Below, piece by piece: positions 27,489 through 58,243 of a stretch of 64,000 nt of DNA. This DNA comes from Candidatus Methanomethylophilaceae archaeon (GTDB lineage: Archaea > Thermoplasmatota > Thermoplasmata > Methanomassiliicoccales > Methanomethylophilaceae): contig CALUHR010000005.1 in the NCBI GenBank assembly GCA_944320495.1, forward strand, positions 224,001 to 288,000. Direction: 5' to 3'. A program made the position numbers and the translations under genes. The notes below the pieces were generated by a model. The model saw only the letters and a program-made list of their open reading frames with translations, ran no database searches and was not told the DNA's origin. Position 1 is the first letter of the stretch. Each line of letters opens with the position of its first letter.

Positions 27489-27509
27489 TCTCCGCGGGAA
27501 GAGTGAAAC

Positions 27510-33485: not shown

Positions 33486-33487
33486 CC

Positions 33488-33928
33488 ATGGTCGACTACT
33501 CCGACATCGTCGGGAACAGCATCGTGGCCAGCGTCATCCAGTCTGACCCCGACACCTTCGAGGAAGTCGTGGCCAAGGCCGTGAGGACGACATCCAGCCG
33601 CAGCCAGGCCGCATCCAAGGTCGAGGACTACGTCAACGACGTCCTCTGGGACGTCATCAACGGTATGGAGGAGTACGAGCCCATCGCCTACTCCCTCGCA
33701 TACTACGGGATGCAGTCGATGGAGTACGACGGCATCGGCGACGACATGACCCTGATCGTGGACACCTACATCAGGGAGAACGGCCCCAAGGCCGCATCCG
33801 TCAGGCGTTCCCCGAACGGCAGGTCCGCACCCAAGCCCAAGTCCGCAGCCTGCAAGCCCAAGGCCAAGGCACCCGCGAAGAGGACGCCCGCCAAGTCCGC
33901 CAAGGCCAAGACTTCCGGGAGGCGCTGA
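33488..33928 (+). CDS. Array gene 2, acidic core plus tail
   Basis: Ends KAKTSGRR. Confidence 0.8.
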   Translation: MVDYSDIVGNSIVASVIQSDPDTFEEVVAKAVRTTSSRSQAASKVEDYVNDVLWDVINGMEEYEPIAYSLAYYGMQSMEYDGIGDDMTLIVDTYIRENGPKAASVRRSPNGRSAPKPKSAACKPKAKAPAKRTPAKSAKAKTSGRR

Positions 33929-33930
33929 CA

Positions 33931-34368
33931 ATGTCCTACAACGGATACAGGAACAGCGCCACCTGGGGCGTCGCGCTGATCTTCGGCAACGACTACGGCT
34001 ACTACCAGCTGTCCAGGGAGTGGGTCGAGGCATGCGCCCGCAAGGGGATGACCAAGGCCCAGGCCAAGGGGAGGATCGCCGAGCTCATCGAGAACGAGGT
34101 CGACCACGAGTGGGACGGGGCCTACGACGCCGTCGCCCGCGTCGGGCCGATCGCGTCCCAGCTGCTCCCGTCCCTCGGGAGCATGGAGATCGACTACGGC
34201 GAGGTGGCCGACGGCATGCTCGAGGACTACTCCGACCTCAGGAAGGAGTGCGCGTCGTCCTCCGCCAGGCCGAAGGCCGGGAGCGCTGCGTGCAAGTCCA
34301 AGGCACCCGCGAGGAAGTCCCCGGCGAAGTCCTCCAAGCCGAAGTCCAAGACCGCAGGGAGGCGCTGA
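33931..34368 (+). CDS. Array gene 3, YNGxxNxxTW family
   Basis: MSYNGYRNSATW; ends KSKTAGRR. Confidence 0.8.
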   Translation: MSYNGYRNSATWGVALIFGNDYGYYQLSREWVEACARKGMTKAQAKGRIAELIENEVDHEWDGAYDAVARVGPIASQLLPSLGSMEIDYGEVADGMLEDYSDLRKECASSSARPKAGSAACKSKAPARKSPAKSSKPKSKTAGRR

Positions 34369-34369
34369 C

Positions 34370-34750
34370 ATGCTCCCTCAGACGTTCGAAGGGGAGGACG
34401 GCTTCGTCTCCGAGGTCGTCTACTACACCCTCTGCAAGAGGATCGACAGGCTCATGGACTCCCTGTACCGCAAGGGCGTGAAACCCCGCGACATGCGCAG
34501 TGACATCAGCGGGCTGATCGATTCGGAGATCGGAAAGGTGAACGCCGCCGGCATGAGGCCGGACGCCACCCTCACGGAAGCCCTGGCATACGCGATCGCC
34601 GACTGGTACTACGAGGAGAGGAACGATGTCGTCCAGTTCTGCATCGACAACTATGTCCCTCCCAGCGGTTCCAAGGCATCCAGGCCCAAGGCACCCGCCA
34701 AGAAGTCCCCGGCGAAGTCCTCCAGGCCGAAATCCAAGGGGAGGCGCTGA
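34370..34750 (+). CDS. Array gene 4
   Basis: Ends PKSKGRR. Confidence 0.8.
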   Translation: MLPQTFEGEDGFVSEVVYYTLCKRIDRLMDSLYRKGVKPRDMRSDISGLIDSEIGKVNAAGMRPDATLTEALAYAIADWYYEERNDVVQFCIDNYVPPSGSKASRPKAPAKKSPAKSSRPKSKGRR

Positions 34751-34752
34751 CC

Positions 34753-35214
34753 GTGGCCCGGAGTCCCATCCGCATAGACTACGGTCATGTGAGCGGGATG
34801 GCACTGGACATCGTCGTGGTGTACGAGCCGAAGTTCTCCGACACCCTCTGGGAGTGCGTCTCCGAGGGCATGGGCAAGGCCGACTGCATCGAGGAGCTCC
34901 GCTACTACCTCTACCACGGTGCCGAGCTCGCCGTCGGCAACACTAGGTTCGCCCCCGATCCCGACACCCCGCAGGACGAGCTCGACCTTTGCAGGAACAT
35001 CGCCCTCAGGGGCGTCGACGACTACCAGGCGAGCGGGGAGGCCGACAGGGCCGCCAGTATCCTCGTGAACGACAACTACGAGAGGTTCAGGGCAGCCGTC
35101 AGGGACCACGGGAGCGGATCCCGCAGGACCGCTCCGAGGGGCGGTGCCAGCAGGCCGAAGGCCAAGGCACCCGCCAGATCTTCCAAGCCCAAATCCAAGG
35201 GGGTGAGGAGATGA
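34753..35214 (+). CDS. Array gene 5
   Basis: GTG start; ends KPKSKGVRR. Confidence 0.75.
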   Translation: MARSPIRIDYGHVSGMALDIVVVYEPKFSDTLWECVSEGMGKADCIEELRYYLYHGAELAVGNTRFAPDPDTPQDELDLCRNIALRGVDDYQASGEADRAASILVNDNYERFRAAVRDHGSGSRRTAPRGGASRPKAKAPARSSKPKSKGVRR

Positions 35215-35645
35215 CCTACAACGGTTGGGCCAACCGCCCCACCTGGGCGATAGCCCTCTGGTTCGACAACGACGAGGGCCTGAGTTCCATGAAGGACGAA
35301 TGGATCCAGGATGCCGCCGATCAGGGGATGTCCTATGAGGAGGCCGAGGACTACGTCTGGGACCGTCTCGAGGAGTACGTTGAGGAGGAGTACGCCGAGG
35401 CATGCGACTCCGTCAACCCCATGATCGCCGACGCGCTGCTGATGTCCCCCGGAATGGCCAACATCGTCTTCTCCGAGATCGTCAGAGGGTTCCTCCGTGA
35501 CGCGGACTACAGGCCCGCGGCGTCCGGTTCCAAGAAGCGGAAGGTCGGGGGCGTTCCCAAGAGCGGTTCCAAGGCTGTCAAGCCCAAGGCGAAGACGCCC
35601 GTGAAGAAGGCGTCCAAGCCGAAGTCGAAGAGGGTCCACAGATGA
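35211..35645 (+). CDS. Array gene 6, YNGxxNxxTW family
   Basis: MTYNGWANRPTWAIALWFDND; ATGA overlap; ends KSKRVHR. Confidence 0.8.
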   Translation: MTYNGWANRPTWAIALWFDNDEGLSSMKDEWIQDAADQGMSYEEAEDYVWDRLEEYVEEEYAEACDSVNPMIADALLMSPGMANIVFSEIVRGFLRDADYRPAASGSKKRKVGGVPKSGSKAVKPKAKTPVKKASKPKSKRVHR

Positions 35646-35998
35646 CCCGCTATCGCACGCCCGACGGCGACGTCATCGACGAGGGCGACCTCGAGGACGC
35701 AATCTACGCCGCATTCACCGAGGACGACTTCAGACGCTGGCTGGACTCGAACTACTCTGGGTTCGACTATGACAGGTACCACATCCCCGCGTCCGAGGTC
35801 CTGGACGTCATGGGAGAGTTCGACTACAAGTACCGCGAGACGGTGGACTCCATCGTCTCCGACTACGGGTCCGACTATCCGTCACTGGAGGACCTTGGAT
35901 TCGAGGAGCTCGACGACGATGACGATGAGTCCCACTCCAAGAGGCCGAAGGCCCGTCCCAAGACCTCCAAGCCCAAGTCCAAGGGGGTGAGGAGATGA
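35642..35998 (+). CDS. Array gene 7, very acidic core
   Basis: 31 D/E in the first 98 aa; the 20-aa tail has 10 K/R and no D/E. Confidence 0.8.
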   Translation: MTRYRTPDGDVIDEGDLEDAIYAAFTEDDFRRWLDSNYSGFDYDRYHIPASEVLDVMGEFDYKYRETVDSIVSDYGSDYPSLEDLGFEELDDDDDESHSKRPKARPKTSKPKSKGVRR

Positions 35999-36540
35999 TG
36001 TGGACCTATGAGGATAGGGACGGCGTCATCCGCGTCGCCGACGAGCAGGAGATCCTCTACAAGGTGACGCCCGACGCGGCCTTCGCCAAGTACCTGGACA
36101 ACGAGTTCTCCGAGATCGACATCCTAGACCGCACCTACGAGCCGTCGGAGGTGTTCATCGAATGGTCCGAGGATGACTTCGCCAGGGCTGCCTCCGAGTG
36201 GTTCAACGACGCCATCTTCCACCCGACCGAGAGGGACCTCTCCTACTTCGAGGAAATCGGAGTCTTCCCCGCGACCGAGGAGGACATCCGCAACGAGAAG
36301 GTGGACAGGGGCATCGACAGGGTCGGCAAGAGGTCCGCGGGACTACAGAACGCCCTCGGAAAGAGGGGTTCCGGCACCGCCAGGCCGAAAGCCGGCGGCA
36401 GGATGACCATCAGGCCGAGGGCGAAGCCGAAGACTCCCGTGAAGAAAGCGTCCAAGGCGAAGTCCGCGTCCAAGACCGCCAAACCGAAGACTCCCGTGAA
36501 GAAGACGTCCAAGCCCAGATCCAAGGGGGCCCGCAGATGA
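35995..36540 (+). CDS. Array gene 8
   Basis: Acidic core and a long tail ending RSKGARR. Confidence 0.8.
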   Translation: MMWTYEDRDGVIRVADEQEILYKVTPDAAFAKYLDNEFSEIDILDRTYEPSEVFIEWSEDDFARAASEWFNDAIFHPTERDLSYFEEIGVFPATEEDIRNEKVDRGIDRVGKRSAGLQNALGKRGSGTARPKAGGRMTIRPRAKPKTPVKKASKAKSASKTAKPKTPVKKTSKPRSKGARR

Positions 36541-36935
36541 CCGGCTCCGACTGGGCCAACTACGAGACGTGGCTCGTCCACGTCCACATGTTCAACGAAG
36601 AGTCCGTGCGGAAGGAGTTCCGCTCCGCCCTCGAGAAGAGGGCCAAGGAGGGGCTGGACCGCCGCACGGTCCGTGACATCGTCACGCATGATGTCCAGGC
36701 TTTCGTGGAGGAGACCGCCGAGGAGGCGTCCCGGCGCGTCCGCAACCCCATGATAGCCGATTTCATCGGATCCTTCCCGGGACGCATAGACTGCTCCCAG
36801 ATTGCCGACTCGTGGATGGAGGTCTACGACGGCATCGCCGCGGAGCAGGTGACATCCAGGTCCCCTTCCAAAGGGACCGCTCGCAACACACCGACGAGGA
36901 AGGGACAGAGGTCCCGCGCCCAGAGGTCGAGACGA
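36537..36935 (+). CDS. Array gene 9, NYETW family (ends at CGA 36933; standard-code end 36989)
   Basis: DWANYETWLVHVHMFNEE; the CGA lies just before the next gene's GGAGGTG RBS. Confidence 0.75.
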
Positions 36936-36955
36936 TCGAGGGGAGGTGTTTCTGA

Positions 36956-38125
36956 ATGGTTTACAACGGAAGATCGAAAGGAAAGATGAAATCGAGAGGA
37001 ATGGGAACGAAAGCCGGGAGGAGGCCTCCCGCATCCCGGTCGCTGAAGGCGGTCGTCACGCCCGACGTGTCGCCGGAGAGCCCCTTCGACGGCATGTCGA
37101 TGTTCGGTTCCCTTCTGATATGCGATCCGAGCGTCGGCAATACCCGCAACTACGTGTCCTTCGAGGATCTGGACGAGTTCTGCAACGCGAAGTTCGACAT
37201 AGACAGGTTCTACGATGAGGTCTACACCAGGAGCGAGAGGGACGTCGCCACATACATCCGTATGTACGGCGCACTGGCCGTGGAGGTCCGCGGCGCACTC
37301 ATCATCGCGGGCCACGAGCAGATCGTCCGCGAGTACGGCTACGACAACGCCGATTCGAGGGCGAAGGCCCTGGACCTCCTGAGAAACGAGGCCGAGATCT
37401 ACATGCAGTGGGCCGACGGGGACGTCTGGCAGGCCATCGTCTATGACGACCACACCGACGACGAGTCCGTCCCGGACAGAGTCGTCATCAGGTACGATCC
37501 CTGGGACGACGACGAGGACGGCGATATCGTGGACTCCCTGGGCGAACTGTACGGACAGGAGTACGCCGAGCAGGAAGCTAAGCGCATGATCGTCGACGAG
37601 AGGGAATCCCGCGGGCAGACCCCGAACTTCGCCAAGGGTTCGGCGTCGAGGAAGGCTCCAAAGAGCCGTTCCGCGTACAGTGCGAAGGGACGCCCTTCCG
37701 TCGGCCAGTATGACAGGGCGAGATACGCCAGGGCCACGAGCGGCGGACACTCGATTCTCAGGGTCTACTACGATCCGGGCGAGTCCGAGATGATGGGACG
37801 CCCCGTCTACGACGTGGTTGCCCGCAAGGCCGGCATCCCCGGGCTTATCTGGGGCAAGGACTACGACCCCGCCTCCGGCCTCTGGAGCGGAGGGGACTAC
37901 GACATCACGAGGGAGAAGCTCGAGAGACACGCGATGGGACATGACCTCATCCGCGAGTACGGGCAGATTCCCGCGGACGCGTTCGGGAGGTCCAAGGGCA
38001 TGAGCCAGACGTCCAGACCGAAGTCTAAGCCGAAGGTTCCCGCATCCAAGGCTGCCAAGCCGAAGTCCAAGGCGCCAGCGAAGAAGCCCGTCGCCAAACC
38101 CAAGGCGGAGGGGGGACGCAGATGA
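36956..38125 (+). CDS. Array gene 10, multi-domain
   Basis: Basic N-terminus, acidic domains; ends KAEGGRR. Confidence 0.8.
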   Translation: MVYNGRSKGKMKSRGMGTKAGRRPPASRSLKAVVTPDVSPESPFDGMSMFGSLLICDPSVGNTRNYVSFEDLDEFCNAKFDIDRFYDEVYTRSERDVATYIRMYGALAVEVRGALIIAGHEQIVREYGYDNADSRAKALDLLRNEAEIYMQWADGDVWQAIVYDDHTDDESVPDRVVIRYDPWDDDEDGDIVDSLGELYGQEYAEQEAKRMIVDERESRGQTPNFAKGSASRKAPKSRSAYSAKGRPSVGQYDRARYARATSGGHSILRVYYDPGESEMMGRPVYDVVARKAGIPGLIWGKDYDPASGLWSGGDYDITREKLERHAMGHDLIREYGQIPADAFGRSKGMSQTSRPKSKPKVPASKAAKPKSKAPAKKPVAKPKAEGGRR

Positions 38126-38562
38126 CCCTCCGCGACGAAGCCCCGCTGACCTTCGAGTTCGGCAACAACACCTGGCTCACCTGGGAGTACTACCGCGACA
38201 ACGAAGCCCTCTCCGAGTCCTGGACGGAGGAATGCGCCCGGGAGGGACTGACCCGCACCCAGGCCGTCGAGAGGATCGTCGGGAACATCAGGGACGATCT
38301 CGCCGACGCCTTCAGGGACGGCGTGTTCAGTACGCAGAACCCGGCGACTTCCGCGGTCCTGCTCCAGGACCCCGATCTCATGGACATCGACTACAGGCAG
38401 GTCGCCGTACGCATCGTCCATGCGTTCTGGCCCGAGGGGTCCGCATCCCCGAGAAGGGCGTCCAAGCCGAAGGCACCCGCGTCCAAGGCGAACAAGCCGA
38501 AGGCCAAGGCACCCTCCAAGAGGCCCACAACCAAACCCAAGTCCAAGGGGGGACGCAGATGA
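38122..38562 (+). CDS. Array gene 11, paralog of gene 3
   Basis: ECAREGLTRTQAVERI vs ACARKGMTKAQAKGRI; ends KSKGGRR. Confidence 0.8.
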   Translation: MTLRDEAPLTFEFGNNTWLTWEYYRDNEALSESWTEECAREGLTRTQAVERIVGNIRDDLADAFRDGVFSTQNPATSAVLLQDPDLMDIDYRQVAVRIVHAFWPEGSASPRRASKPKAPASKANKPKAKAPSKRPTTKPKSKGGRR

Positions 38563-39368
38563 AGGGCAGGACCGCAACCAGGTCCCCGTCCAAGCGCTCC
38601 GTCATCTACCCGGTCAGGGACGCGCCCTGCCCGGTCAGGACGACAGCGGGTTCCGACATCACGGACGACGTGATCCTGTTCCGCCGCAAGGGCAGGCAGG
38701 GGGACCCCGCCGCGTATCTCACGGACGACGGACGCTCCCTCATCGACCTCGTGGCCGCCAAGGCCGGCCCCGATGCCGCGGGAGGGTTCGCATCCCACAG
38801 GTTCCGCTCCGACGACACCATGACGAGGGCGCTCAGGGAGCTCGGCATATCCAACGAGGTCGTGGACGAAGGCATCCTGGCATCGGCTAGGGGCATCTAC
38901 GGCTACGAGTCCTACGACTACAGGATGTGGTCCAACGGCCACACCGGATACCGCGTCGCCCATGTGGAGGACCCCTCCGACGACACGGGCAGGAACCTCA
39001 TCGTGGACGACGAGTCGAAGATCCCTGGCAGGGTCATCTCGAAGGGGAACCGCATCTACTACAACGAGAGCAAGGCGGAGCTCCACGGTGCCGAGTTCGG
39101 CAGGGACAACGCCCCGAAGAGGGACTGGAGGTTCAGCCTGGCGTTCCGCGGGGATACCAGCGGGCTCACGGTCGAGGAAGTCTCCAGGCTCGGCTACGAC
39201 GGGCGCGACATGGAGGTCGGCGACGAGATGTCCGTCGGCCCCCTCGTGATCAGGAGAGTCAAGGGCGACGCCATGGACTACGTCTCGAGGTCTGGCTCGC
39301 CGAGATCGAAGGCCAAGGCGCCCGCCAAGAAGGCATCCAAACCCAAGTCCAAGGGGGTGAGGAGATGA
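38559..39368 (+). CDS. Array gene 12
   Basis: Paralog of gene 13 (RSPSKRSVIYP, DDPSDDTGR-like, NAPKRDWRF); ends KSKGVRR. Confidence 0.8.
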   Translation: MKGRTATRSPSKRSVIYPVRDAPCPVRTTAGSDITDDVILFRRKGRQGDPAAYLTDDGRSLIDLVAAKAGPDAAGGFASHRFRSDDTMTRALRELGISNEVVDEGILASARGIYGYESYDYRMWSNGHTGYRVAHVEDPSDDTGRNLIVDDESKIPGRVISKGNRIYYNESKAELHGAEFGRDNAPKRDWRFSLAFRGDTSGLTVEEVSRLGYDGRDMEVGDEMSVGPLVIRRVKGDAMDYVSRSGSPRSKAKAPAKKASKPKSKGVRR

Positions 39369-40222
39369 ACGGCAAGGCACCGAGATCCCCATCCAAGCGT
39401 TCCGTCATATATCCGGCGAAGAACGCGACCTGCCCCGTAAGGACCAAGGCGGGAAAGGACCCCGCGGCCAACTCGACACTCTACCGCTTCAGGGGCGACG
39501 TCGTCGGGGACCCGAACGCATACGTCACCGACGACGGGAAGACTCTCGTGGATCTCGTCGGAGCTGTGGCGGGTCAGAAGGATGCCGAGGAGTTCTCCGG
39601 ACACAGGTATCGCACCATCGACGCGCTTCTGGACCGTCTCGGGGGATTCGACATCTATGCGACTCGCTGCTCGGACCTCTCGATAGTCGCCGGGAGATAC
39701 AGCATAGTGTACGACGAGGCCAAGGATTATGACCGCTGGCTCGACGGCGACGTGTTCCGTGTCGCCGAGGTCGACGACCCGTCCGACGATACCGGCAGAA
39801 CCCTCTACGTCGATGATGTGTCTCAGATCCCCGGGCGTATAATCCGCAAGAGGCACGGTGTGTACTCTTACGAGGACGCACAGCACACGGCGGCGGAATT
39901 CGGCATGGAGAATGCCCCGAAGAGGGACTGGAGATTCTATGTCGGTCAGAGGCCTGGTGACAACTCCATCGGCTACGATGATGCGGTCAGACTCGGCTAC
40001 GACGGTCGTGACATGAAGGTCGGCGATTATATGGAGGTCGGGCCTCTCATAATCCAGAGGGTCGATGGCCATCTGTCGGGCTATTTCGCCCCGGACTCCG
40101 ACGGCTCCAAACCGATAACCAGGAGGACGGTCGGGCCGAAGGCTGGGACATCCGGCAAGGTACCAACCAAGACTCTCGCATCCAAAGCCACCAAGCCCAA
40201 GTCCAAGGGGGTGAGGAGATGA
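39365..40222 (+). CDS. Array gene 13
   Basis: Tandem paralog of gene 12; ends KSKGVRR. Confidence 0.8.
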   Translation: MNGKAPRSPSKRSVIYPAKNATCPVRTKAGKDPAANSTLYRFRGDVVGDPNAYVTDDGKTLVDLVGAVAGQKDAEEFSGHRYRTIDALLDRLGGFDIYATRCSDLSIVAGRYSIVYDEAKDYDRWLDGDVFRVAEVDDPSDDTGRTLYVDDVSQIPGRIIRKRHGVYSYEDAQHTAAEFGMENAPKRDWRFYVGQRPGDNSIGYDDAVRLGYDGRDMKVGDYMEVGPLIIQRVDGHLSGYFAPDSDGSKPITRRTVGPKAGTSGKVPTKTLASKATKPKSKGVRR

Positions 40223-40605
40223 GCGTCAGCGCGTTCGTCCACACGTACTTCATCAGATACCTGGAAGAGAAGGGCGTGGACATCTACGACTACGCCATGG
40301 AGCTGGCGGAGAGCGGCAGGGACTACTGGGACTGCGAGGAGGTGTTCGCGGACTACATCGAGCGTCTCGCCATCGAGTTCCAGTACGATGCGGCGGACTA
40401 CGCCGAGTCGGACATCACCACGATGCTCGTCGAGGACTGCCTCCTCAGGGAGGTCGTGGACTTCGACCTGTTCTTCGACAGGGACGGCAGCCCGCTGAAG
40501 GGCAGGTCCGGTTCCCGCAGGCCCGCGTCCAAGGCAACCGGGCCCAAGGCCAAGGCATCTGCCAAGAAACCCTCCAAGCCCAAGTCCAAGGGGGTGAGGA
40601 GATGA
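40219..40605 (+). CDS. Array gene 14
   Basis: Paralog of gene 16 (ADYIERLAIEFQ vs ADYIGRLAVEFQ). Confidence 0.8.
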   Translation: MSVSAFVHTYFIRYLEEKGVDIYDYAMELAESGRDYWDCEEVFADYIERLAIEFQYDAADYAESDITTMLVEDCLLREVVDFDLFFDRDGSPLKGRSGSRRPASKATGPKAKASAKKPSKPKSKGVRR

Positions 40606-41207
40606 CCGGGTACGGCTGGGAGTTCCCGGACGGAACCGTCATCCCCGTCGAGGACGGTTCCGCCGTCGAGGACAAACTCCTCTCGATGGACTCCTTCTGG
40701 GACAGGAACAGGAAGGACTGCCTCCGCCAGGGGCTGTTCTACCAGTGGTACTGCGACGAGATCGGGCGCGACATCGAGAACATGTCCGAGAGGGAGCTCT
40801 ACGACCACTTCGGCGTCAGATGCTCCGAGGACAGGGACGGGAAGGTCGTCTACGTCCTGCCCGAGGGTGACAGGACCGATGCGAGGGGACTCTTCGAGTG
40901 GATCGAGGAAGAGGGCTACCGCTACGACGAGTGGCTGGAGTTCAACTCCGACTGCTACGACTTCAAGGAGCTGGTGAAGAACGAGGCCGAGTATCTGACC
41001 TCCGACTACGGCAACGAGGAGTCCATGGGGTACTACGGCGTCAGGCTGGTACCGATGTCCTCCGGATCCAAGAGGCCGTCCAAGCCGAAGGCGAGGACTC
41101 AGGCGAGGAAACCCGTCTCGAAGTCCGCGTCCAAGGCATCCAAGCCCAAGGCCAAGGCTCCCGCGAGGAAAGCATCCAAGCCCAAGGCGAAGGGGGTGAG
41201 GAGATGA
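40602..41207 (+). CDS. Array gene 15
   Basis: Acidic, aromatic-rich core; ends KAKGVRR. Confidence 0.8.
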   Translation: MTGYGWEFPDGTVIPVEDGSAVEDKLLSMDSFWDRNRKDCLRQGLFYQWYCDEIGRDIENMSERELYDHFGVRCSEDRDGKVVYVLPEGDRTDARGLFEWIEEEGYRYDEWLEFNSDCYDFKELVKNEAEYLTSDYGNEESMGYYGVRLVPMSSGSKRPSKPKARTQARKPVSKSASKASKPKAKAPARKASKPKAKGVRR

Positions 41208-41596
41208 CCGCCGACGTGTTCGTCGCCCGCGCCTTCCTCAAGTACCTGGATGGGAGACGGGAGAGACACGATCTCTACGCCCTGAAGCTGGCCGACAGCG
41301 GCAGGACCGAACGGGAATGCGAGGACGCGTACGCCGACTATATCGGACGTCTCGCCGTCGAGTTCCAGCGGAGTGCGGTGAATGACGTCGATCCGGACGT
41401 CACGGAGCAGCTCGTCGAGGACTTCGACTTCCATGAGTTCGTGGACACGGGCTACTACTTCGAGTTCGACGGGACCCCGCGCGACAGGTTCGGCACCCGC
41501 AGGGCCGGGTCCGCGTCCAAGGCATCCAGGCCGAAGGCCAAGGCTCCCGCGAAGAAGCCCGCATCCAAGCCCAGGTCCAAGGGGGCGAGGAGATGA
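41204..41596 (+). CDS. Array gene 16
   Basis: Paralog of gene 14; ends RSKGARR. Confidence 0.8.
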   Translation: MTADVFVARAFLKYLDGRRERHDLYALKLADSGRTERECEDAYADYIGRLAVEFQRSAVNDVDPDVTEQLVEDFDFHEFVDTGYYFEFDGTPRDRFGTRRAGSASKASRPKAKAPAKKPASKPRSKGARR

Positions 41597-42903
41597 CCGC
41601 ACCCAGGCGCAGAGCATCCTCGAGGTCCGCCCGCTACGCGGGGGACCTCCCCAAGAGGATCCGCGACCACCCGTACCTGTCCGTCCCGGGAGGCGTCCTC
41701 CGCCTCCCCGACGGGACAAGGGTGTACGCCGAGTCGGACATCGAGCTCCTCGATGGCCAGGACGAGGGTCTCGTCTACTTCTGGACGGACGCGGTCGACG
41801 AGGAGGGCGGATACTACGGCATCGCGTTCTCCTTCGAACTCGACGAGCTCATGAGGACCCCCTGGAACAAGGTGGACTGGCAGGGACACATCGACGACGT
41901 GACCTACGAGCCGCCCGAGAGCGGTTCCAAAAAGCCCAGATCCAAGACCAAAGTCTCAAAGAGGCCCGTCTCCAAGTCCTCCAAGCCCCGCGTCTTCACC
42001 GTGGCCGATTGGGACGCGGGGAGGATCGGGGAGATGAGGCCCGGCGACGGGCTCGACAGGGAGCTGTACGACGGACTCCGCTGGAACGGCTACCCCTACC
42101 CCGCCGACCCCCGCGTCCTGGCGGCCAACGGTTGCATCCGCGGGTACTGTCTGGGGAAGGTCAGCGATAGGGGCAACTACACCTACGGCGAGACCCCCGA
42201 CGGGAGATACGTCTACCTCGGTCTCTCGATCCCGCTGGACGAGACGCCCTACACCATGGCCCTGTCCAACCCGAACAGCCTCGATTCCCGCTACGACGCC
42301 CGCGTCGCCGCGAAGGAGGTCGAGGCCGAGGAGAGACGCCAGAGGGAGTGGGCCAAGGATCCCCGCTCCAAGTACGTCGATGTGGACGAGTGCAGGATCT
42401 ACGGGGCCGTCGAGACGTTCGACGACCTCGTGGAATACTACACGCTCTTCAACCCGGAGTATGCGGAGCGTCTCCGCGACCCCGAGGTCGTTGGGTATCT
42501 GAGGGACTACTACGCCCACATGGACTGGGTGAGCCACGGGAACGGACCCAGCTACGACGAGGACGTGGACGGGGAGACGATGCTCAGCCATCTGTACGAC
42601 CTCACCGAGGAGGCCGAGTCGTTCCAGACGGAGTTCATGGAGGACGAGTACGAGAACGGCGACACCGACATGCTGGACTTCCTCAGACGCCGTGCGGCGA
42701 TCCAGAGGAGGTACGGAGTCGAACCAGACTGGAAGGATTCTTCCAGTGGTTCCAGGAAGGGCAAGACACCCTCCAAGGCGTCCAAGCCCAAGGCACCTGT
42801 CAGGAAGGCCGCCCCCAAGGCGGCCTCCAAGACCACCAAGCCGAAAGCGAAGACTCCCGCCAAGAGGCCCGCCGCCAAGCCCAAGACAAAGGGGGCGAGG
42901 CGA
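41593..42903 (+). CDS. Array gene 17, fused cassettes (ends at CGA 42901; standard-code end 43023)
   Basis: Internal tail remnant near aa 112-135 plus a terminal tail; CGATG junction. Confidence 0.75.
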
Positions 42904-43523
42904 TGGGCACGTCCAACTACGCCCACGACACCAGCTTCCTCGTATGGGCCTTCGAGTACGAGCCCGACGAGGACTGGTACCGCGAGGAGTTCCCCGACGA
43001 GTCCGACGACTCGATCCACCTGATGATGGCCGAGGACCGCGACATGGAGTACAGGCAGGTCGAGAAGGCCGTCCAGCCCATGCTGGACCGCCTCAACTCC
43101 GATCTCCTGTTCCACAGACTGGGTATCCGCTCCGGGTACTACGACGGCATCCAGGTCTATGTCGACGAGCCGTCCCAGGACAGGTGGCTGGTGCCGGAGC
43201 TCCGCGATGCCTGGGAGGAGATGTACGGCGAGGACTCCGTCCCCGACGACACCAGACTCCTCGGCGTCTACGCCGACGAGCGCACCCGCATCAGGAAGTG
43301 GCTGAGGGACAACCTGCCCCGGCTCGGGTTCCATGCCCTGAGGTACACCTCTCCGTGGACGATCGAGCGCGTGGAGAATCCCAGCAGGAGGGCGTCCAAG
43401 CCGAAGGCGAAGAACCCCGCAAAGAGGTCCAGGCCGAAGGAATCGTCCAAGACGGTCAAACCGAAGACTAAGCCCAAGAACCAAGAGAAGAACTCTGGAA
43501 CTAAGTCCAGAAAGAGGTTCCGA
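42903..43523 (+). CDS. Array gene 18 (ends at CGA 43521; standard-code end 43568)
   Basis: MGTSNY start, acidic core, basic tail and CGAcATG junction. Confidence 0.75.
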
Positions 43524-43524
43524 C

Positions 43525-44466
43525 ATGTCCAAACGCGAGCGTGGCGGTGTCGGAAAGAGACCTGGTAGAAGGTCGTATCATCAACCAGGACAGCCCAGAT
43601 ACCCCGTCAGGAGGTCCCCAGAAGAATTCAAAGAGATGGGTTCCAAAGTCTCCAAGATTGGCAGAATCGAAAAAAGAAGATCGATCTGGGCCATAGACGA
43701 TTCAGGAACTGCTGATTTTACCGAAGGTGCGAGTGAATACCTGACGTTGACGGCAGTGACGATGCTGAACGAATCGGATTTCAGGAAGATGTTCTCTAAC
43801 ATCACACTGTATGATGGGGAGATAAAATTCAATCTCCTGAGATTGGAACATCCCGACGAATGTCTCACTGCCATGAAGCGCATCGGCAGCAGTACGGCCT
43901 TCATCGCTTGCTACCCTCGCTTCAAGGATTTTTCCAATCCCCAGGATCGTCGTCTGTTCTTCTTGGAATCCCTACAGAAACTCATCGATTCTATCATGCG
44001 GATCGATCGTTCGAGTCTTGTCCTGATAGGTGTGGATGAGAACAACTACCTGTTGTCCTCTGACTACTACGAACTATGCAGTCCCAGATGCCTGGTATTC
44101 CCTATCGACTCGAAGGATTCTCTCCTTTTGCAGACAGCGGACATGGCCACGAGTAGCTTGGGCCATGCCCTGCTTCCCGCGAATAGGGGGACATCCGCAT
44201 ATTTCGATGAAATCAGAGACAGAACGATGAATGTACACGGGAAGCCCGGCGTAAGCACACAGCAAACACCAAGGGGCTTCAACCGTGACGATATAGAATC
44301 GACCACAGAAGTTAAAAAGGTTGGTGGGTCCAAATCATCCAAATCCCGTTCTACGAAGGTTGTTCGTGGAAAGGATGGAAGATTCGTATCCTCTAACCCC
44401 TCCAAGCAGAAATCAACCCAGAAAAATGAGTCGAAGGCATCCAAGCCCAAGGGGGTCCGCAGATGA
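43525..44466 (+). CDS. Array gene 19, DUF3800-like protein with acquired tail
   Basis: AIDDSG...S.LLQTAD pattern, AT-richer codons; ends KPKGVRR. Confidence 0.65.
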   Translation: MSKRERGGVGKRPGRRSYHQPGQPRYPVRRSPEEFKEMGSKVSKIGRIEKRRSIWAIDDSGTADFTEGASEYLTLTAVTMLNESDFRKMFSNITLYDGEIKFNLLRLEHPDECLTAMKRIGSSTAFIACYPRFKDFSNPQDRRLFFLESLQKLIDSIMRIDRSSLVLIGVDENNYLLSSDYYELCSPRCLVFPIDSKDSLLLQTADMATSSLGHALLPANRGTSAYFDEIRDRTMNVHGKPGVSTQQTPRGFNRDDIESTTEVKKVGGSKSSKSRSTKVVRGKDGRFVSSNPSKQKSTQKNESKASKPKGVRR

Positions 44467-44863
44467 CCCTTATATCCCCAGCCACTGATGTTGGCGATGC
44501 GGTCGCGGAAACACCTCGCAGTAGGGAACGTGGCGGCTCCCACGCGACTGCACCTCTTGTTTCAGATTGTGAAGATAGAAACGGACGCCCGCTCCCGGTT
44601 GTGGGCACAGTTCTCCCACAGTGTCGGGTGCGTCGTCCCCAGTGGTCCCAAGGTGTCACCCCCAGGTTGCCGCCTGCAAGGATCGATGCGGCTGAAGGTA
44701 TTTCAACCCATTCCCGCACCATCAACCGTACGTCCGTCCTCCGTGGACTGGCGCTGAACATTCTCTCGCACATCGCGGGGACCTCTGGGTCCCCCACAAA
44801 CCCCAACAAGGATGGGAATCCGATGAAAATGTACAGCGCAATCAGTGGAACGGGGGTCTCCGC

Positions 44864-45526
44864 ATGACCCTCTGGAACGTCTATCTGCCCCACGGCAACT
44901 TCGCCGAGAGGATGGCCGTCGAGGCCCCGAACGAGAGGGAGGCATTGGAGGCCGTCGCGGAGAAGCTCCGCGGGACCGTCTTCGTCATCGACTATGACGA
45001 GTGGGACGCCAGATTCCAGGACTACATCGCGGACGGGTACTCCGCCGACGAGGCGGAGAACATACTGGACGAGATGTACCTGCCGGTGGACGGCGGGTAC
45101 TACCTGGACATCACGGGCGTCACCATCGAGGAGGCCCGCGACACCGGCTCCGACGGCAGGGTCGACGCCGTCAAGCTGGCCTACGATCTCGCCGACTTCG
45201 GCGAGGAGACGGACCACTACGAGTTCTGGGACAACTACAACACCATGGAGGACGCCGTCACCCAGCTCACCCAGTCCCTGGGAACCCTCGCGGGCTCCAG
45301 GGCGATCCGCGACGACATCGCGGAGAGGATGGCCGAAGGATTCGCCACCTATGGCGAGGACGAGAAGGCCAGGGGCCTCATATCCAGGCTCGACAGGCAC
45401 ATCAGATCCTTCGGCAGCGGTTCCGGGAGGCCGAAGGCCGGGAGGCCCGTCTCCAAGGCGTCCAAACCGAAGGCCAAGGCACCCGCCAGATCCTCCAAGC
45501 CGAAAGCCAAGGGAGGACGCAGATGA
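44864..45526 (+). CDS. Array gene 20, acidic core
   Basis: Ends KAKGGRR. Confidence 0.8.
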   Translation: MTLWNVYLPHGNFAERMAVEAPNEREALEAVAEKLRGTVFVIDYDEWDARFQDYIADGYSADEAENILDEMYLPVDGGYYLDITGVTIEEARDTGSDGRVDAVKLAYDLADFGEETDHYEFWDNYNTMEDAVTQLTQSLGTLAGSRAIRDDIAERMAEGFATYGEDEKARGLISRLDRHIRSFGSGSGRPKAGRPVSKASKPKAKAPARSSKPKAKGGRR

Positions 45527-45954
45527 ACTCGTACATCGACGCGGGGCAGATCGCCGAACACCTGAGGTACGAGCGCGACAGGGGGAGGCTCGAAGCCTTC
45601 CTCGATAGATCCGTGGATCTCGACGGCATCCTCATCAAGACGAGGGAGACGTCGAGGGGTGGCAGGGTCGTGTCCGAGCGCGTCATCGAGATGACGCTGC
45701 CGATCCGCTGGGCCGATCTCGGGGCCACCTTCGTCCTCAGGCCCCTCGCGCCCAACCACGTCGCCATGTACCCCGAGTCGGACCCCGAAGACCCTGTGTA
45801 TTCGACGGTGGCGAATGACGTCTGGAGATGGCTCCTGGACAGATACCGCGAATCCGCCGCCGGACACGGCGTGGACATCGATGCCTACGGGACCGTCATC
45901 ACGGCTTCCCTGAGGCCGGCATCCAAACCCAAGTTCAAGGGGGCGAGGAGATGA
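45523..45954 (+). CDS. Array gene 21
   Basis: ATGA overlap; short tail ASKPKFKGARR. Confidence 0.75.
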   Translation: MNSYIDAGQIAEHLRYERDRGRLEAFLDRSVDLDGILIKTRETSRGGRVVSERVIEMTLPIRWADLGATFVLRPLAPNHVAMYPESDPEDPVYSTVANDVWRWLLDRYRESAAGHGVDIDAYGTVITASLRPASKPKFKGARR

Positions 45955-46286
45955 GCGCGCGCATCAACGACCCGCTCGGGTTCGCCAACGGCGTGATGCC
46001 CAGGAACCCTCCCCAGGCTTACCGTGCGGTGATCATGCGTCCCGACGGCAGCGTCAGCATCACCCATGAGTTCCCCCGCGGATTCCTCGAGCAGGTAGTC
46101 ATCCCGGACGCCCTTGCCCAGGTTCCGGGCGGAAGGCTCTTGGAGATAATCCGCGACGAGGATAAGGAGGCCTGGATAAGGGCGCACACCAAGCCCAGGT
46201 CCGCGTCCAAGGCGTCCAGGCCGAAGGCCAAACCTCCGGCGAAGAAACCCGCGTCCAAACCCCGTTCCAAGGGGGCGGTACGCTGA
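45951..46286 (+). CDS. Array gene 22
   Basis: ATGA overlap; ends RSKGAVR. Confidence 0.75.
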   Translation: MSARINDPLGFANGVMPRNPPQAYRAVIMRPDGSVSITHEFPRGFLEQVVIPDALAQVPGGRLLEIIRDEDKEAWIRAHTKPRSASKASRPKAKPPAKKPASKPRSKGAVR

Positions 46287-46327
46287 ACACCAAGCCGGAG
46301 AGGAAGGTCTGGACATCCCCCGACGGG

Positions 46328-46864
46328 GTGTGGACCGTCACCGCGACGTCCGACGACCCGGCCGACCCCTCCGGCCCCCTCGGGGCCAGGGTGGTGGTGG
46401 AGAACCCCGCCTCCGCCTGGACCCGCTACCGGGAGGTGTCGGAGTTCAGGCCCCGCGGCGCGAGGGACGAGTGGGTCGGCGTCCCCGCCTACGTCAGCGA
46501 GAGGGCGGAGGAGATGCTCGAGGACGAGCGCGACGACCTGGAGAACAGGATTCGCTGGATCCTGAACAGGCACGACGGGCGCGGGAAGATCCTCTACGAC
46601 AGGATCAAGGGTTCCGCCGTCGGCCCCTGCCCCAGGTGCGGCTCCCGCTCGGTGACCGTCGATTCCTGCGTGAAGAGGGGGAAGGGCAACTCGCTGGTGG
46701 ACGGCCCCTATTCCATAGCGTGCTGCGACTGCTGGCTCCGCACCTCGTACCACGTCGACAGGTCGCTGATGCTGGCTGAGTGGAACGAGGGGCATCCGTG
46801 GCTCGAGTACAGGCCGGGCAGGCCGGTGCCGATCCGCGGGGACTATGAGAGGTGCGGGGCATGA
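46328..46864 (+). CDS. Protein with a C-terminal Lar-like (restriction alleviation) zinc ribbon
   Basis: GPCPRCGS...IACCDC...LAEWN pattern. Possible CTG start at 46283 overlapping the upstream stop. Confidence 0.55.
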   Translation: MWTVTATSDDPADPSGPLGARVVVENPASAWTRYREVSEFRPRGARDEWVGVPAYVSERAEEMLEDERDDLENRIRWILNRHDGRGKILYDRIKGSAVGPCPRCGSRSVTVDSCVKRGKGNSLVDGPYSIACCDCWLRTSYHVDRSLMLAEWNEGHPWLEYRPGRPVPIRGDYERCGA

Positions 46865-49354: not shown

Positions 49355-49682
49355 GGATTCCCGTGGTATGTAAGCTGCACGGTCACCCGTACCACGGTAT
49401 TTGTCAGAAAGTCCCCGCCTATTTTTGTATGCCTCCGCGTGCTCTAGGTCATCAGCATACCGGCCCTATCAGACCCTATGGTAGTCCTGACGTAATAGAC
49501 AGCAGATCGGTGCAATATAAGGTCTCTGTTACGAAAATCGAAGCGGATGATATCATGGGAAGGAGATGCAAAACGAATGGGAACGCCCGGTTGCCGATCT
49601 CGGCAGTCAGATACCAAGCAGGGGCGTTCGGGCAAGGACACATGAGGGCCGAAGTCCTTGAAACCTTCGCCAGGAGGTGCGG

Positions 49683-50192
49683 ATGTACCGCATCGTGAAG
49701 CGCAGGGACGGCACCACCGTCCGCATACCCGTCGGAGAGGACGGCTACGTCCCCTTCGACGCCTACGTCGAAAGGAACAACAAGCGCTCCAGGCGTGCAA
49801 GGACGATGGACTCCAAGAGGGTGTCCAGAAGGCTCCTGAACCCTCTGATGACGCCCGAGGACGCCGCCGACTGGTGGGTACACCCCGAGAGGTCCGACAT
49901 CAAGGGCGTGGACGCACCGGCGAGAAAGAAGGAAGTCATCGCTCCGAAGAAGAGGAACCCTAAGGCATTCTTCGGGGAGAACAGGCGCAGATCGAGCGTC
50001 GCCAACCTGCCCTGGCTGTCCGATCCGCAGGAGGCCCAGGCGAAGGCGAGGGAGATGGGCGTCAGCGAGGACATGATCCGCGCGTACCAGCAGGCGGCCT
50101 GGGACGATCTGGACGTCCAGCTCGGCGTCCCGCGCCACACCGAGATGTTCGACTCGAACTCGAAGCGTCCGAGGAACAGGAGACGCGGATGA
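49683..50192 (+). CDS. SDIxGID-family protein
   Basis: GGAGGTG RBS and WWVHPERSDIKGVDAP. Confidence 0.8.
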   Translation: MYRIVKRRDGTTVRIPVGEDGYVPFDAYVERNNKRSRRARTMDSKRVSRRLLNPLMTPEDAADWWVHPERSDIKGVDAPARKKEVIAPKKRNPKAFFGENRRRSSVANLPWLSDPQEAQAKAREMGVSEDMIRAYQQAAWDDLDVQLGVPRHTEMFDSNSKRPRNRRRG

Positions 50193-50301: not shown

Positions 50302-50637
50302 ATGAAGGGCAGATTCAGTCTTCGGAGACGTCGTATCTACACGATCGGAGAGATTGCGGAGATAATCGCTCCCATCGCCAGGAGATACGGGGCAAGAGAG
50401 GTTTGGCTCTTCGGTTCCTACGCTCGCGGCGAAGCCGACGCGGACAGCGACGTGGACATCGCCGTGATGCCCGGGGAAGGTTGGGGCATACGCATCGGCA
50501 CGTTCTGGCGCGAGATCAGCGATGCCCTGGACAAGGATGTGGACCTGACTACGTTTGACGACGAGGCGTTCATCGATTTCGTCAAGAAGGACATGGTGCG
50601 GATTTACGTCTCGGAATCCAAGCGGATGATGCCGTGA
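50302..50637 (+). CDS. MNT-family nucleotidyltransferase
   Basis: LFGSYARGEADADSDVDI motif; no HEPN partner seen next to it. Confidence 0.85.
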   Translation: MKGRFSLRRRRIYTIGEIAEIIAPIARRYGAREVWLFGSYARGEADADSDVDIAVMPGEGWGIRIGTFWREISDALDKDVDLTTFDDEAFIDFVKKDMVRIYVSESKRMMP

Positions 50638-50783
50638 AGGGAGCAATTATGAAGGAAACACCCGGGTGCAAATCTTAGCCAAGGACCAAGTAGATGCGTT
50701 CGGGCAAAGACACATGGGATGTGTCATCCTTGAAACCTTCGCCGTGATGCACCCAGACACAAAGCGACAAGGGGTTGCCCCCC

Positions 50784-50996
50784 GTCGGAAACCCCGCGAC
50801 TGCGGGGAACACCGCATCATCTCCAAGAGTTGGATGAATGTCTTGGAATCACCCCCGCTTACGCGGGAAACACGGCCTGATGCTGATGGTCGCGTTCGCC
50901 CAGTTCGGATCACCCCCGCTTACGCGGGGAACACTCAATCCCGGTACATCCCATAGAATGTACTCTACGGATCACCCCCGCCGGAGCGGGGAAGGC
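50784..50996 (-). CRISPR. Type I-E-like mini-array with 4 repeats and 3 spacers
   Basis: 29-nt repeats at 50784, 50845, 50906 and 50968 (best copy CGGATCACCCCCGCTTACGCGGGGAACAC) and spacers of 32, 32 and 33 nt. No cas genes in the window. Confidence 0.9.
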
Positions 50997-51173
50997 ATCC
51001 CGGCCCGGGGAGTCGCGTTCCAATCCCCGGGCCGGGCCTCCGTCGCCACGTGCAGGGACGACGGCGGACCGCAATTGGAGGTTTAAGGTCCATCACGGTC
51101 AAGGACGAGCATATAGAAACGGTCTTCCCTGGAATCCGCCGCGACCTTGACCGTCCGACAACCGTCGGAACGG

Positions 51174-51255: not shown

Positions 51256-51612
51256 ATGTACATTAGCGAGGAGGAGGAGGCCCGTCGCCTCGCGGAGATC
51301 AAGCGGTTCTGCGATGCGAACGGGATCCACGCGTCGAAGACGTTCGATTCGTACTACTTCACGATGCGCGGCCATCGGTACCGCGTGTCCAACCACACGG
51401 TGGAGGCATCCAACCGCCACGCCTACGACAGGGCCGGGCGGAAGCGCAGGGAGCTGTACCATCCCGACGGGAGGGAGGACGGCGTCACATACATCCACGC
51501 CAGCAGGTACCGCATCATCAGGATCTACCTGGACCTCAAGCTCGGCGCGAAGCTGGACGGACGCGGGCGCGTCGTGGGGTACACCTACCGCGGGAACGGA
51601 GGGGGCAGACGA
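51256..51612 (+). CDS. Hypothetical protein (ends at CGA 51610; standard-code end 51624 at TAG)
   Basis: RYRVSNH motif; CGATG junction. Confidence 0.7.
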
Positions 51613-52076
51613 TGGCCGTCATAGTCCGCGCCCCCGCAGACTCCGCTCCCACGTCAGTGCGCTGCTGGAACTGCCGGAGGAGGGGGCTGTCCAAGCCCCG
51701 CTCCCGTACGCTGTCCCCCGGGAGGGAGGACGGCGTGTACGCCTGCTCCGAGTGCGGCGCGCTCACGTCCATCCGCTCCACCCGCGGGGACCTGATCTGG
51801 GCGAGCGACGACGGGATGTGGGCCATCAGCACCGACGTGGACTGGAGTCGTCTCTTGGCCAGGAGGCCGGGGGCGAGGTTCGCCCTCGAGATCCAGTCCG
51901 CCGACGGACGGCGCATCCCCGCGTTCTCCGAGGGGCGCGGGATCCTCACGCTCTCCCCGATCCCTTCCGACGCACCGTCCGAGCTCCTCCAGGCCGTCAC
52001 GTTCTACATGCGCTCCCAGCAGAGGTCCTCCCCGCCCGAGGGGAAGTCCGTACGCGGGATCCTCAGGAGGCACCGA
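51612..52076 (+). CDS. Zinc-ribbon protein (ends at CGA 52074; standard-code end 52094)
   Basis: CWNC and CSEC cysteine pairs; the CGA lies 1 nt before the next TTG start. Confidence 0.65.
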
Positions 52077-53132: not shown

Positions 53133-54158
53133 ATGGAAGCAAGAACATTCCTCAAGCAGTATGAATGTCAAATGAGCGTTGCGTGGAACGAGAAGCGCCG
53201 CAATTGGCCCGCCATCGGATCCGTCCCCCGTGGAGAGTATCTCTTTCCCGACACCGTCGAGGAGGACCTCCAGGCATGGTGGAGGCACCTGATTGATAGC
53301 AACATCAACTGGCATACGGTCAAGGCCAACTGGGCCGCCACCCGCAGATGCATCAAGCTCCTCATGGACGCAGGATTGAACTACGAGGCTTACGCCGTCG
53401 ATAGAGATGACATCATCTTTCTCAGAGAGGACGGTTTCGCTGGCCTCTCCCCCGACACCGTCAAGTGGTACATCATGCTCTTCGGGCGCTACCTGAAGTT
53501 CAACGGGAACTCGGTGATTGACGGCATGGATCTCCATTGGCAGAACTCGGACGTCCATCCCGGCAAGGACTGGCTGGAGAGGGAACAGGCCGCCGTTCTC
53601 ATGGCCTGCGACGGCTATACCGTCCACGAACGCACGGCACTCGTTCTGATGTTGACTATGGGACTCCGTAGGATCGAGGTCCTCAGGCTGAGGGTGGATG
53701 GCATCACCGACGACGGTGTCATAGTGTGCGGTAAGGGGCACGGCGGCGGGAAGTACCGCTTCGTGCCGTACTCCAAGGGCGCAAGGCTCCAGATCCAGGA
53801 GATGCTCCGCTGGAGGGAGATGCAGATCTCCGACGAGAGGGATCTCGACCCCGACTACGAACCTGATCCGGAGTTGTTCCTCACCCAGACGAGGCACCCG
53901 CATCACTACAATGAGGCGGGTACGGGGTTTGACAAGAGTATCCTGAGAGGCATACGCGATAAGTCGGGGGTGGAGTTCTCCAACCACACGTTGAGGAGGA
54001 CGTTTGCCAGGCTGACCTACTTCGAGAACCCCACAGAGAGGACGCTGGAGATACTGGCCAGCATCCTGGGCCACGAGGACACGAAGGTCACGCTCCGCTA
54101 CATTGGGGTGTCCGAGGACGAGAAGTCCGACGTCATGCTCAGCCAGAGCTGGTTCCGA
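53133..54158 (+). CDS. Tyrosine recombinase/integrase (ends at CGA 54156; standard-code end 54176)
   Basis: Catalytic set GLRRIE, HTLRR, LGH and TLRY. Confidence 0.92.
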
Positions 54159-54160
54159 TC

Positions 54161-54179
54161 CCCTCAACGGAGTTGAGGG
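54161..54179 (+). terminator. Hairpin downstream of the integrase
   Basis: CCCTCAAC-GGA-GTTGAGGG. The standard TGA stop falls inside this hairpin. Confidence 0.5.
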
Positions 54180-57238: not shown

Positions 57239-58243
57239 TCAGACGAACCTGTACGACAGCTCGCAGGCGCCGTCCCTCACATCGAACTCCGCCATGGCGC
57301 CGTTGACGAACGTCATCCTCGGCGCCTTGTGGCCGACGTCCGCATCAAACACCGCCGGCACGCCCAAGTCCCCTATCTCGGCCATGACCGCATCGTTGTA
57401 AGGGGATCCCCCGTGGTAGAACAGCGGCCTGCCGAACACGAACCCGGTGCAGTCCCGCAGCCAGCCCTTGTCGCACATCAGCCTCAGGAGCGTCCTGATG
57501 CGGTCCTCGGCCATGTCGTACGTCTCCAGGTACCAGACGACGCCGTCAGGCCCGTACCTGTCGACGAACCCCGACGCGTCGGCAGTATCGTACCTGACGA
57601 ACCAGTCGATCACGTCCATGCACCCGCCGATGAGCCTCCCCTCGAACCTGACGTCACCGGACGGCGAGACCCAGACTGTGTCGGCGTCCTCCCTGAAGGG
57701 CTCCAGACCGGTGACCCTGTCGGCGAAGCCCTCGGCGTGCCTGGCGAAGGACCTCTGCGACGTCCTGCGGCCCTCCAGGAACTCCAGGGACTGCTCCACG
57801 CTGGGGTGCCAGGGCTCCATGCCGAAGTCACCGTAGTTGCCCCCGTAGACGGTGGCCACGTCGTGCTCGGCCGTGATCTTGAACAGGAGGGTCGTGTTGT
57901 CCGAGTATCCCTGGAACCACTTCGGGTTAGATTCTATCAGATCCCAGTCCATCAGGGGGAGCATCTCGAACTCGTAGTCCCCTCCGGAGGCGGCGTAGAC
58001 GGCCGCGACCGACGGGTCCTCCATGAGGGAGTTGAACTCCTCGACGCGCTGCTCCGCCGGGGCGCTCCGCCCCTGCTCGTCGCACATGAAGGTGTCCGGG
58101 GTCTCGACGACCCTGTACCCCCTCTCCTCCAGCCTGCGCCTGGCGTTGGCGAACCTTGCGCGGTCGGTGGCCTCCGTGACCCCGGCCGAGGGGCCGGTGA
58201 CTCCGATGACGTCGCCTTTCGAGAGGAATCCGGGATACTTCAT
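57239..58243 (-). CDS. S66 family peptidase (LD-carboxypeptidase/MccF-like)
   Basis: IGVTGPS, ASGGD, GYSDNT and DVGHKAP motifs. Confidence 0.92.
   Translation of the reverse strand: MKYPGFLSKGDVIGVTGPSAGVTEATDRARFANARRRLEERGYRVVETPDTFMCDEQGRSAPAEQRVEEFNSLMEDPSVAAVYAASGGDYEFEMLPLMDWDLIESNPKWFQGYSDNTTLLFKITAEHDVATVYGGNYGDFGMEPWHPSVEQSLEFLEGRRTSQRSFARHAEGFADRVTGLEPFREDADTVWVSPSGDVRFEGRLIGGCMDVIDWFVRYDTADASGFVDRYGPDGVVWYLETYDMAEDRIRTLLRLMCDKGWLRDCTGFVFGRPLFYHGGSPYNDAVMAEIGDLGVPAVFDADVGHKAPRMTFVNGAMAEFDVRDGACELSYRFV

Follow-up and report, generated by a model that had tools for sequence, protein, structure and literature searches.

A type I-E mini-array without cas genes on an integrated archaeal element, read as a predicted Cascade-repressing guide combined with inter-element guides

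The minus strand of the window, the 64,000-nt stretch of DNA analysed here, carries at positions 50784–50996 a mini-array of four type I-E repeats of 29 nt with spacers of 32, 32 and 33 nt, located on an integrated element. We read this array, with a probability of roughly 0.6, as a composite in which a captured regulatory guide, with a predicted repressive action on Cascade, is combined with guides against other elements, all acting through the type I-E system of the host. In the mechanism that we propose, the minus strand of the array would be transcribed from its own putative promoter, and host Cas6e would cut the transcript into three crRNAs. The guide from spacer m3, probably a copy, since diverged, of the cr-like regulatory guide encoded behind the host array, would pair through its positions 1–15, with 6 and 12 free, with a site at the cas3/cas8e junction that has the PAM AAC. 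Such partial pairing would let Cascade bind without recruiting Cas3, and Cascade bound at this site would be expected to block transcription of the cas8e–cas6e operon, by which the element would hijack host autoregulation and lower host CRISPR immunity. The remaining spacers, m2 and m1, would provide exchangeable interference guides against rival elements, a role that we assign to them because such a guide in a sister variant matches other variants of the element.

Were this reading correct, guide-RNA silencing of host CRISPR–Cas, predicted so far for a few I-B and I-F1 bacteriophages, would extend to archaea, to type I-E and to elements of gut methanogens, and a single small array would merge anti-host with anti-rival guides. 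The predicted circuit comes with exact coordinates for the host guide, the element guide and their common target (Table 1), and the copies of the array, with 2–4 repeats, would form a natural series for unit gain in cas-less arrays.

Architecture and transcription unit of the mini-array

The repeats share the core CCCCGC-N4-GCGGG, which has seven matches in the window when both strands are counted, all of them within the array, compared with 0.09 expected from shuffled sequences. These coordinates, the spacer lengths and the shuffle test confirm the initial annotation, which had described four 29-nt repeats with this hairpin. Because the plus strand reads as the reverse complement of a standard I-E repeat, we take the minus strand to be the crRNA sense. 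The annotation had also noted degeneracy in the 5′ part of the first repeat and the 3′ part of the last, and this is borne out: the odd 5′ end and canonical handle of the first repeat are kept in 13/13 copies of the array, and the hairpin and odd 3′ end of the terminal repeat are kept in all of them. Since the degenerate parts lie only at the outer ends of the outer repeats, every spacer still has an 8-nt handle on its 5′ side and a hairpin on its 3′ side. An Rfam search gave no match.

Table 1. Positions of the mini-array, its surroundings, the host unit and the proposed target (unprefixed coordinates refer to the window; C6 is the host contig with the cas genes)
Feature	Position	Strand	Description
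Integrated element	~22700–54200	+	~31 kb; gene order common to related elements
Protospacer-like site	49391–49423	-	match of spacer 2 of variant L062: PAM AAA, 26/33 identical, 24/28 pairing positions
MNT-type nucleotidyltransferase	50302–50637	+	adjoins array
Small G+C hairpin, then T-rich run	50754–50783	-	directly after last repeat; conserved in variants
Terminal repeat	50784–50812	-	canonical 5′ part and hairpin; degenerate 3′ part (TTTCCGAC for GTGATCCG)
Variable spacer m1	50813–50844	-	32 nt
Inner repeat	50845–50873	-	U-G wobble in stem; handle GTGATTCC
Variable spacer m2	50874–50905	-	32 nt
Inner repeat	50906–50934	-	fully canonical I-E; 1 mismatch/28 vs arrays of G175 and G075
Spacer m3	50935–50967	-	33 nt, invariant; predicted regulatory guide
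First repeat	50968–50996	-	non-canonical 5′ end (GCC for GTG); canonical hairpin and 3′ handle GTGATCCG
Upstream region	50997–51119	-	TATA-like TTTCTATATG at 51110–51119; putative promoter
Conserved element gene	51256–51624	+	122 aa; divergent from array; query used to fetch variants
Tyrosine integrase	53133–54176	+	right end of element; same position in relatives; 2.1 kb from array
m3 target site 1	C6:59720–59752		PAM AAC; 156 nt before cse1 (cas8e) ATG; inside 3′ end of cas3
Host cr-like mini-array	C6:67022–67111 (L001 17022–17111)		~200 nt behind host array

The inner repeats differ at 1 of 28 positions from the genomic I-E repeats of two relatives, one of the same genus (G175) and one of another genus (G075), and at 3 of 28 from the repeat of the organism's own host array, these three being position 4 and two loop positions only. 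Over the mini-array, the repeats agree with the host repeat at 25–26 of 29 positions and share its stem and handle. Across 17 distinct repeats, the stems are 98% paired, and the changes within them consist of one compensatory replacement of C-G by U-A and one U-G wobble that pairs solely in the minus-strand RNA. The 4-nt hairpin loops, for their part, are nearly free to vary, with 12 loop sequences among 19 repeats (window and L060–L069) and differences at 2–4 of the 4 positions between copies with near-identical flanks.

Upstream of the array in the crRNA sense, 258 nt are 95–100% conserved among variants. A strong hairpin of 13–15 bp (50999–51038, minus strand) lies between the TATA-like box and the first repeat, and the box itself (51119–51110) points away from the promoter-like motif of the adjacent gene. 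A comparison of the upstream region with the host CRISPR leader gave no similarity (G+C 63% vs 42%). At the other end of the array, the small hairpin and T-rich run could possibly be the terminator of the minus-strand unit.

Two recurrent motifs were seen in the same surroundings. One, a conserved motif of ~75 nt that is non-coding, has two copies in the element (50654–50743 and 49579–49671) and is also present at a contig end in G159 (L008:32–91) and in most metagenomic variants, where it sits just past the last repeat of the array; its stem G-U wobbles pair on the plus strand only, and it has no Rfam match. The promoter-like motif TTCATAAACGGTTCCCATCCCAT has seven copies in the window (361, 2237, 17612, 22777, 28823, 30848 and 51171), each 50–180 nt upstream of plus-strand genes, within and outside the element.

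Spacer m3 and the host CRISPR-cas locus

The comparison with host cas genes that the initial annotation had proposed finds a complete type I-E system on a different contig from the array, C6, with cas3, cse1 (cas8e), cse2, cas7, cas5, cas6e, cas1 and cas2, together with an array that has an A+T-rich leader, 9 good and 1–2 decayed repeats; the host thus does not lack the machinery that such an array would need. Cse1 occurs in 10 of 62 genomes of the genus, and its sole match in the organism's own genome is the one on C6. No cas gene was found in the window among the ORFs scanned, which include part of the small ORFs of the element, nor does a cas operon adjoin the array in any of 12/12 related copies, an arrangement that the annotation had raised as a sign of a decayed host array. 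Its proposal of a cas-less I-E mini-array on an element is supported by the gene order of the carrier and by the confinement of Cse1 to C6.

We scanned the organism's own genome (1.77 Mb) with the first 15 bases of m3, leaving positions 6 and 12 free (pattern TAGAGNACATTNTAT); these are the flipped-out bases of type I guides. The seed has three sites: m3 itself, C6:59720 and the spacer of a host cr-like mini-array at C6:67051, whereas base composition predicts 0.007 sites and permuted seeds 0.03. Solely positions 6 and 12 separate the target, the host guide and m3 over their first 15 bases; past position 15 the three have diverged, and at C6:59720 positions 1–15 comprise 13 paired and 2 free positions. 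In 81 loci (~1 Mb), the m3 seed is limited to copies of the element, the host locus and the identical cas locus of a second strain or sample.

The host cr-like mini-array consists of a repeat unit with a degenerate 5′ part, a 32-nt spacer (C6:67051–67082) and a repeat unit with a degenerate 3′ part, which is the architecture of the core unit on the element. The first and terminal repeats of the element align with and resemble the first and terminal units of the host mini-array, and the 5′ handle of the host unit has two changes from the canonical handle. Because the host and element units can be aligned over ~110 nt, with the stretch ahead of the first repeat included, we consider them to be of common descent; the unit on the element appears to be either derived from the host unit or its sibling.

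When the TAG codon at position 9734 of L001, a stretch of C6, is read through, cas3 ends at CGA (C6:59881), overlapping the cse1 ATG, and the Pfam Cas3_C match grows from 1–65/107 (46.5 bits) to 1–107/107 (91.7 bits). Since read-through extends cas3 to the cse1 ATG, the target is inside cas3. In turn, the sense reading of TAG in this organism gains support, as the cas3 reading frame is whole only with TAG as a sense codon. The target falls in a TATA-like, poorly conserved linker of Cas3_C with a G+C content of 37–40%, compared with 55–60% around it, and an ATAAAC box that resembles the promoter-like motif family of the genome lies directly before it. From these features we infer that the target region may be an internal promoter of the Cascade operon.

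Outside these seed matches, m3 has no full protospacer in IMG/VR (searched with the sixth positions free), in JGI metagenomes, in GTDB species representatives or in any variant compared, and no match with up to 3 mismatches in the 62 genomes of the genus. No similar guide–target pair turned up in the I-E loci of nine relatives, and consequently cross-species covariation lends no support here.

Copies of the array, variable spacers and competing explanations

Variants were fetched through the 122-aa neighbour protein, which is identical on 23 public contigs and 99% identical on two more. The array is present on all fetched contigs that extend to this position, giving 12 metagenomic copies, or 13 with the window: six contigs with 2 repeats, three with 3 repeats, three with 4 repeats (the window included) and one with at least 2, which ends within the second repeat. 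Spacer m3 is present in all 13 copies, with substitutions confined to positions 17, 19, 25 and 26, whereas the other spacers differ between copies. The variable units are placed between m3 and the last repeat, and the inner repeats copy neither end repeat. For the latter reason leader-end acquisition was rejected in either orientation, and taken together with the position of the variable units and the unlike leader, these observations mean that ordinary acquisition at a leader end fails to account for growth of the array. The loop types of the inner repeats (GTAA and GTAT) are found also in genomic arrays, and we suspect that new units were gained by repeat-mediated recombination with such arrays and not by Cas1–Cas2. 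With no adjacent cas genes, no leader similarity and variable units at the distal side, the array is unlike a canonical genomic I-E array. That stem pairing, handle, m3 and the last hairpin are kept while the number of repeats varies from 2 to 4 favours the composite reading.

Targets of the variable spacers were seen between variants of the element. Spacer 2 of variant L062 matches other variants with a PAM of AAA, 26–27 of 33 positions identical and 24–25 of 28 pairing positions matched, and the best copy of this site in L062 itself has seed mismatches. A weaker match, with the PAM AAC, was seen for spacer 3 of L062 beside arrays of a third variant type, so that AAA and AAC are the PAMs flanking inter-variant matches. 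For the window's own m1 and m2 there were no targets in the organism's genome or in the loci and variants compared. In IMG/VR (exact search with sixth positions free), neither these two nor two spacers of sister variants had a protospacer; m1 had none in 261 genomes of the order at up to 3 mismatches, and m2 had none in GTDB species representatives. A seed match of m2 on contig C9 was judged to be chance, as it lies inside a housekeeping gene with the wrong PAM, ACG. In the reverse direction, 230 spacers from the I-E arrays of nine loci gave only noise against the element and its relatives, and a search of JGI metagenomes with the odd first repeat returned one match, which was an ordinary array.

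These searches bear on several points of the initial annotation. Its statement that no self-match was seen holds for full self-targets, of which m1–m3 and the nine host spacers have none beyond chance in the organism's own genome, but the seed match of m3 to the cas locus had been missed. The search that it proposed against Methanomassiliicoccales genomes and viromes left m1, m2 and m3 without a full protospacer in the databases searched, and found matches in other variants for spacers of sister variant L062. The exclusion of competitors that it suggested is supported for the sister variant, whose spacer matches rivals with a PAM, and not for the m1 and m2 of the window, which matched nothing. 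The sequence also backs its other suggestion, an RNA anti-CRISPR, which would take the form of an invariant m3 guide that mimics the host cr-like RNA, and not that of a bare repeat decoy.

The array could instead be a plain mini-array for superinfection exclusion, in which m3 is an ordinary guide whose seed match to the cas locus is a mere trace of its origin from the host mini-array, with no regulatory effect. Such mini-arrays are known in archaeal viruses, the L062 match to rival variants fits this, and thin sampling would explain spacers without targets. We nevertheless consider it unlikely, since m3 keeps its seed unchanged in 13/13 copies while its neighbours turn over, has no protospacer in any of the collections searched (GTDB representatives, IMG/VR, JGI metagenomes, the 62 genus genomes and the variants), and matches by its seed only in the host CRISPR-cas locus, at one of whose sites the PAM fits. 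The same conservation and specificity of the m3 seed speak against a decoy of the Racr type, whose repeat hairpins would soak up Cas6e and Cascade subunits with the spacers irrelevant. Repeat-like RNAs of mobile elements reportedly inhibit Cas complexes in this manner, and a single hairpin similar to the terminal repeat is present in a related element; yet the unit here is a full crRNA gene with handle, 33-nt spacer and hairpin instead of a solitary repeat, and its other spacers vary, one of them with a real target, which leaves the decoy very improbable.

Another proposal is that m3 is a spare autoregulator that serves the partnership with the host by limiting Cascade, and with it self-damage from the element's own guides, or that it is a leftover of a captured module. 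The host has a guide of this kind too, and the element is integrated and probably long-resident. By sequence this proposal is indistinguishable from our main reading, though the canonical handle of the element copy, better than that of the host unit, suggests stronger action and not redundancy; we give it only a small chance. A decayed orphan host array without present function would agree with the missing adjacent cas genes, the missing leader-like sequence and the degenerate end repeats, but the array sits between element genes, occupies the same place on 12 independent metagenomic contigs, and preserves exactly the parts needed for crRNA maturation while its spacer content turns over, so that we regard decay as extremely unlikely. 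The composite reading itself has several points against it. In E. coli type I-E CRISPRi, pairing with the template strand is the weaker orientation for blocking elongation, and m3 pairs with the template strand. That the host already carries a guide with the same seed would count against a gain from m3, as would the location of the target within the cas3 coding sequence, where the putative promoter is recognised from composition alone; the upstream region unlike a CRISPR leader also weighs against the reading. We further put forward, tentatively and with more doubt than confidence, that the array is a two-in-one RNA weapon: its stolen autoregulatory guide would throttle Cascade, its other guides would turn the remaining Cascade on rivals, units would be harvested from genomic arrays by recombination, and the host regulator and fast-changing loops would reflect a contest over the same promoter.

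Mini-arrays borne on mobile genetic elements were reportedly described by Faure and colleagues in 2019, and the array resembles such arrays in its four host-like repeats, three spacers, mobile carrier without cas and host I-E system; a host-like leader is absent, with only the TATA-like box in its place. Camara-Wilpert and colleagues are said to have described in 2023 repeat-like RNAs of mobile elements (Racr, solitary repeat units) that inhibit Cas complexes. The array is like Racr in that its product would be a non-coding RNA, derived from repeats and encoded by a mobile element, that weakens host CRISPR–Cas. In contrast to the single-repeat decoy without a spacer, each copy of the array has at least 2 repeats and a 33-nt spacer, making a full guide with a specific seed and a predicted guided repression.

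Virus-borne mini-arrays with host-like leaders, implicated in interviral conflict, were reported by Medvedeva et al. 2019 (PMC6858448), where leaderless phage mini-arrays are described as well. Like the former, the present array is cas-less with 1–3 spacers and host-like repeats, its spacer content differs between close variants, and one spacer, that of variant L062, matches sister variants at a site near the array, with the copy in L062 itself mutated. It departs from them in having no host-like leader, in variable units that are not leader-proximal, and in one invariant spacer that points at the host cas locus.

The nearest counterparts of m3 are the host regulatory mini-arrays and phage mimics of Shmakov et al. 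2023 (PMC10120712; bioRxiv 10.1101/2023.03.03.530964). As in the phage mimics, a spacer is enclosed by two repeat-like units, and its first ~15 bases match both a host spacer and a PAM-bearing site upstream of cas8; the match is seed-limited (at least 10 nt) upstream of cas8e, with the host seed shared and the downstream part diverged. The spacer-adjacent repeat is likewise conserved, stem-loops are kept with varying sequence, and mismatches fall at sixth positions. The setting is different, as the cases of that study are I-B and I-F1 bacteriophages and prophages, whereas ours is an archaeal gut methanogen of the Methanomassiliicoccales with type I-E, an unclassified integrative carrier, a target inside the cas3 reading frame and a unit fused with additional variable interference spacers. 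Shmakov et al. 2023 (PMC10120712) reported that regulatory mini-arrays of prophages and those of hosts are anti-correlated, but the host here retains its own. In that study host I-E mini-arrays lie between cas3 and cas8, whereas the unit at C6:67022–67111 lies behind the array; its kind otherwise fits. Mini-arrays and repeat decoys both appear in a 2024 review, which lists no such composite. What would be new, if the sequence has been read correctly, is the archaeal I-E setting and the combination of the two functions in a single array, and likewise the co-resident regulator of the host and the target within cas3.

The element that carries the array

We place the element at ~22.7–54.2 kb because the gene order from the homologue of 22913–23850 to the integrase is common to elements in four relatives (G157, G155, G159 and G168). 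The array is located between two element genes that have homologues in those relatives, and there is no array at the corresponding spot in their elements. Nor was an array found in elements whose neighbour gene is 70–79% identical, or a mini-array in ~20 loci of more distant elements with the same ATPase family; homologues of the Zot-like ATPase gene (25782–27506) occur patchily, in 45 of 261 genomes of the order. In G168, a lone hairpin resembling the terminal repeat of the mini-array, with neither partner repeat nor spacer, was seen in the element (L039:8028–8058), and the host of that element also has I-E.

A search for shared 13-mers did not find att sites. Four relatives join the gene at 57239–58243 (flank at 57250) directly to genes that are 147 kb away on the contig, and the first ~57 kb of the window are therefore part of a large variable block; the synteny comparison with relatives revealed nothing beyond this 147-kb block. 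IMG/VR contains no close relatives of the integrase or of the protein encoded at 49677–50192.

Among the other genes of the element, the MNT gene is solitary in the window and has a HepT-like (HEPN) partner in some variants (L064:810–1551). The region 32600–46300 holds ~20 co-directional small genes with ATGA-type coupling, whose products, many of them acidic, end in Lys-rich tails (...KPKSKGVRR); one of this set matches DUF7249, and a Lar-like zinc ribbon follows next, at 46328–46864.
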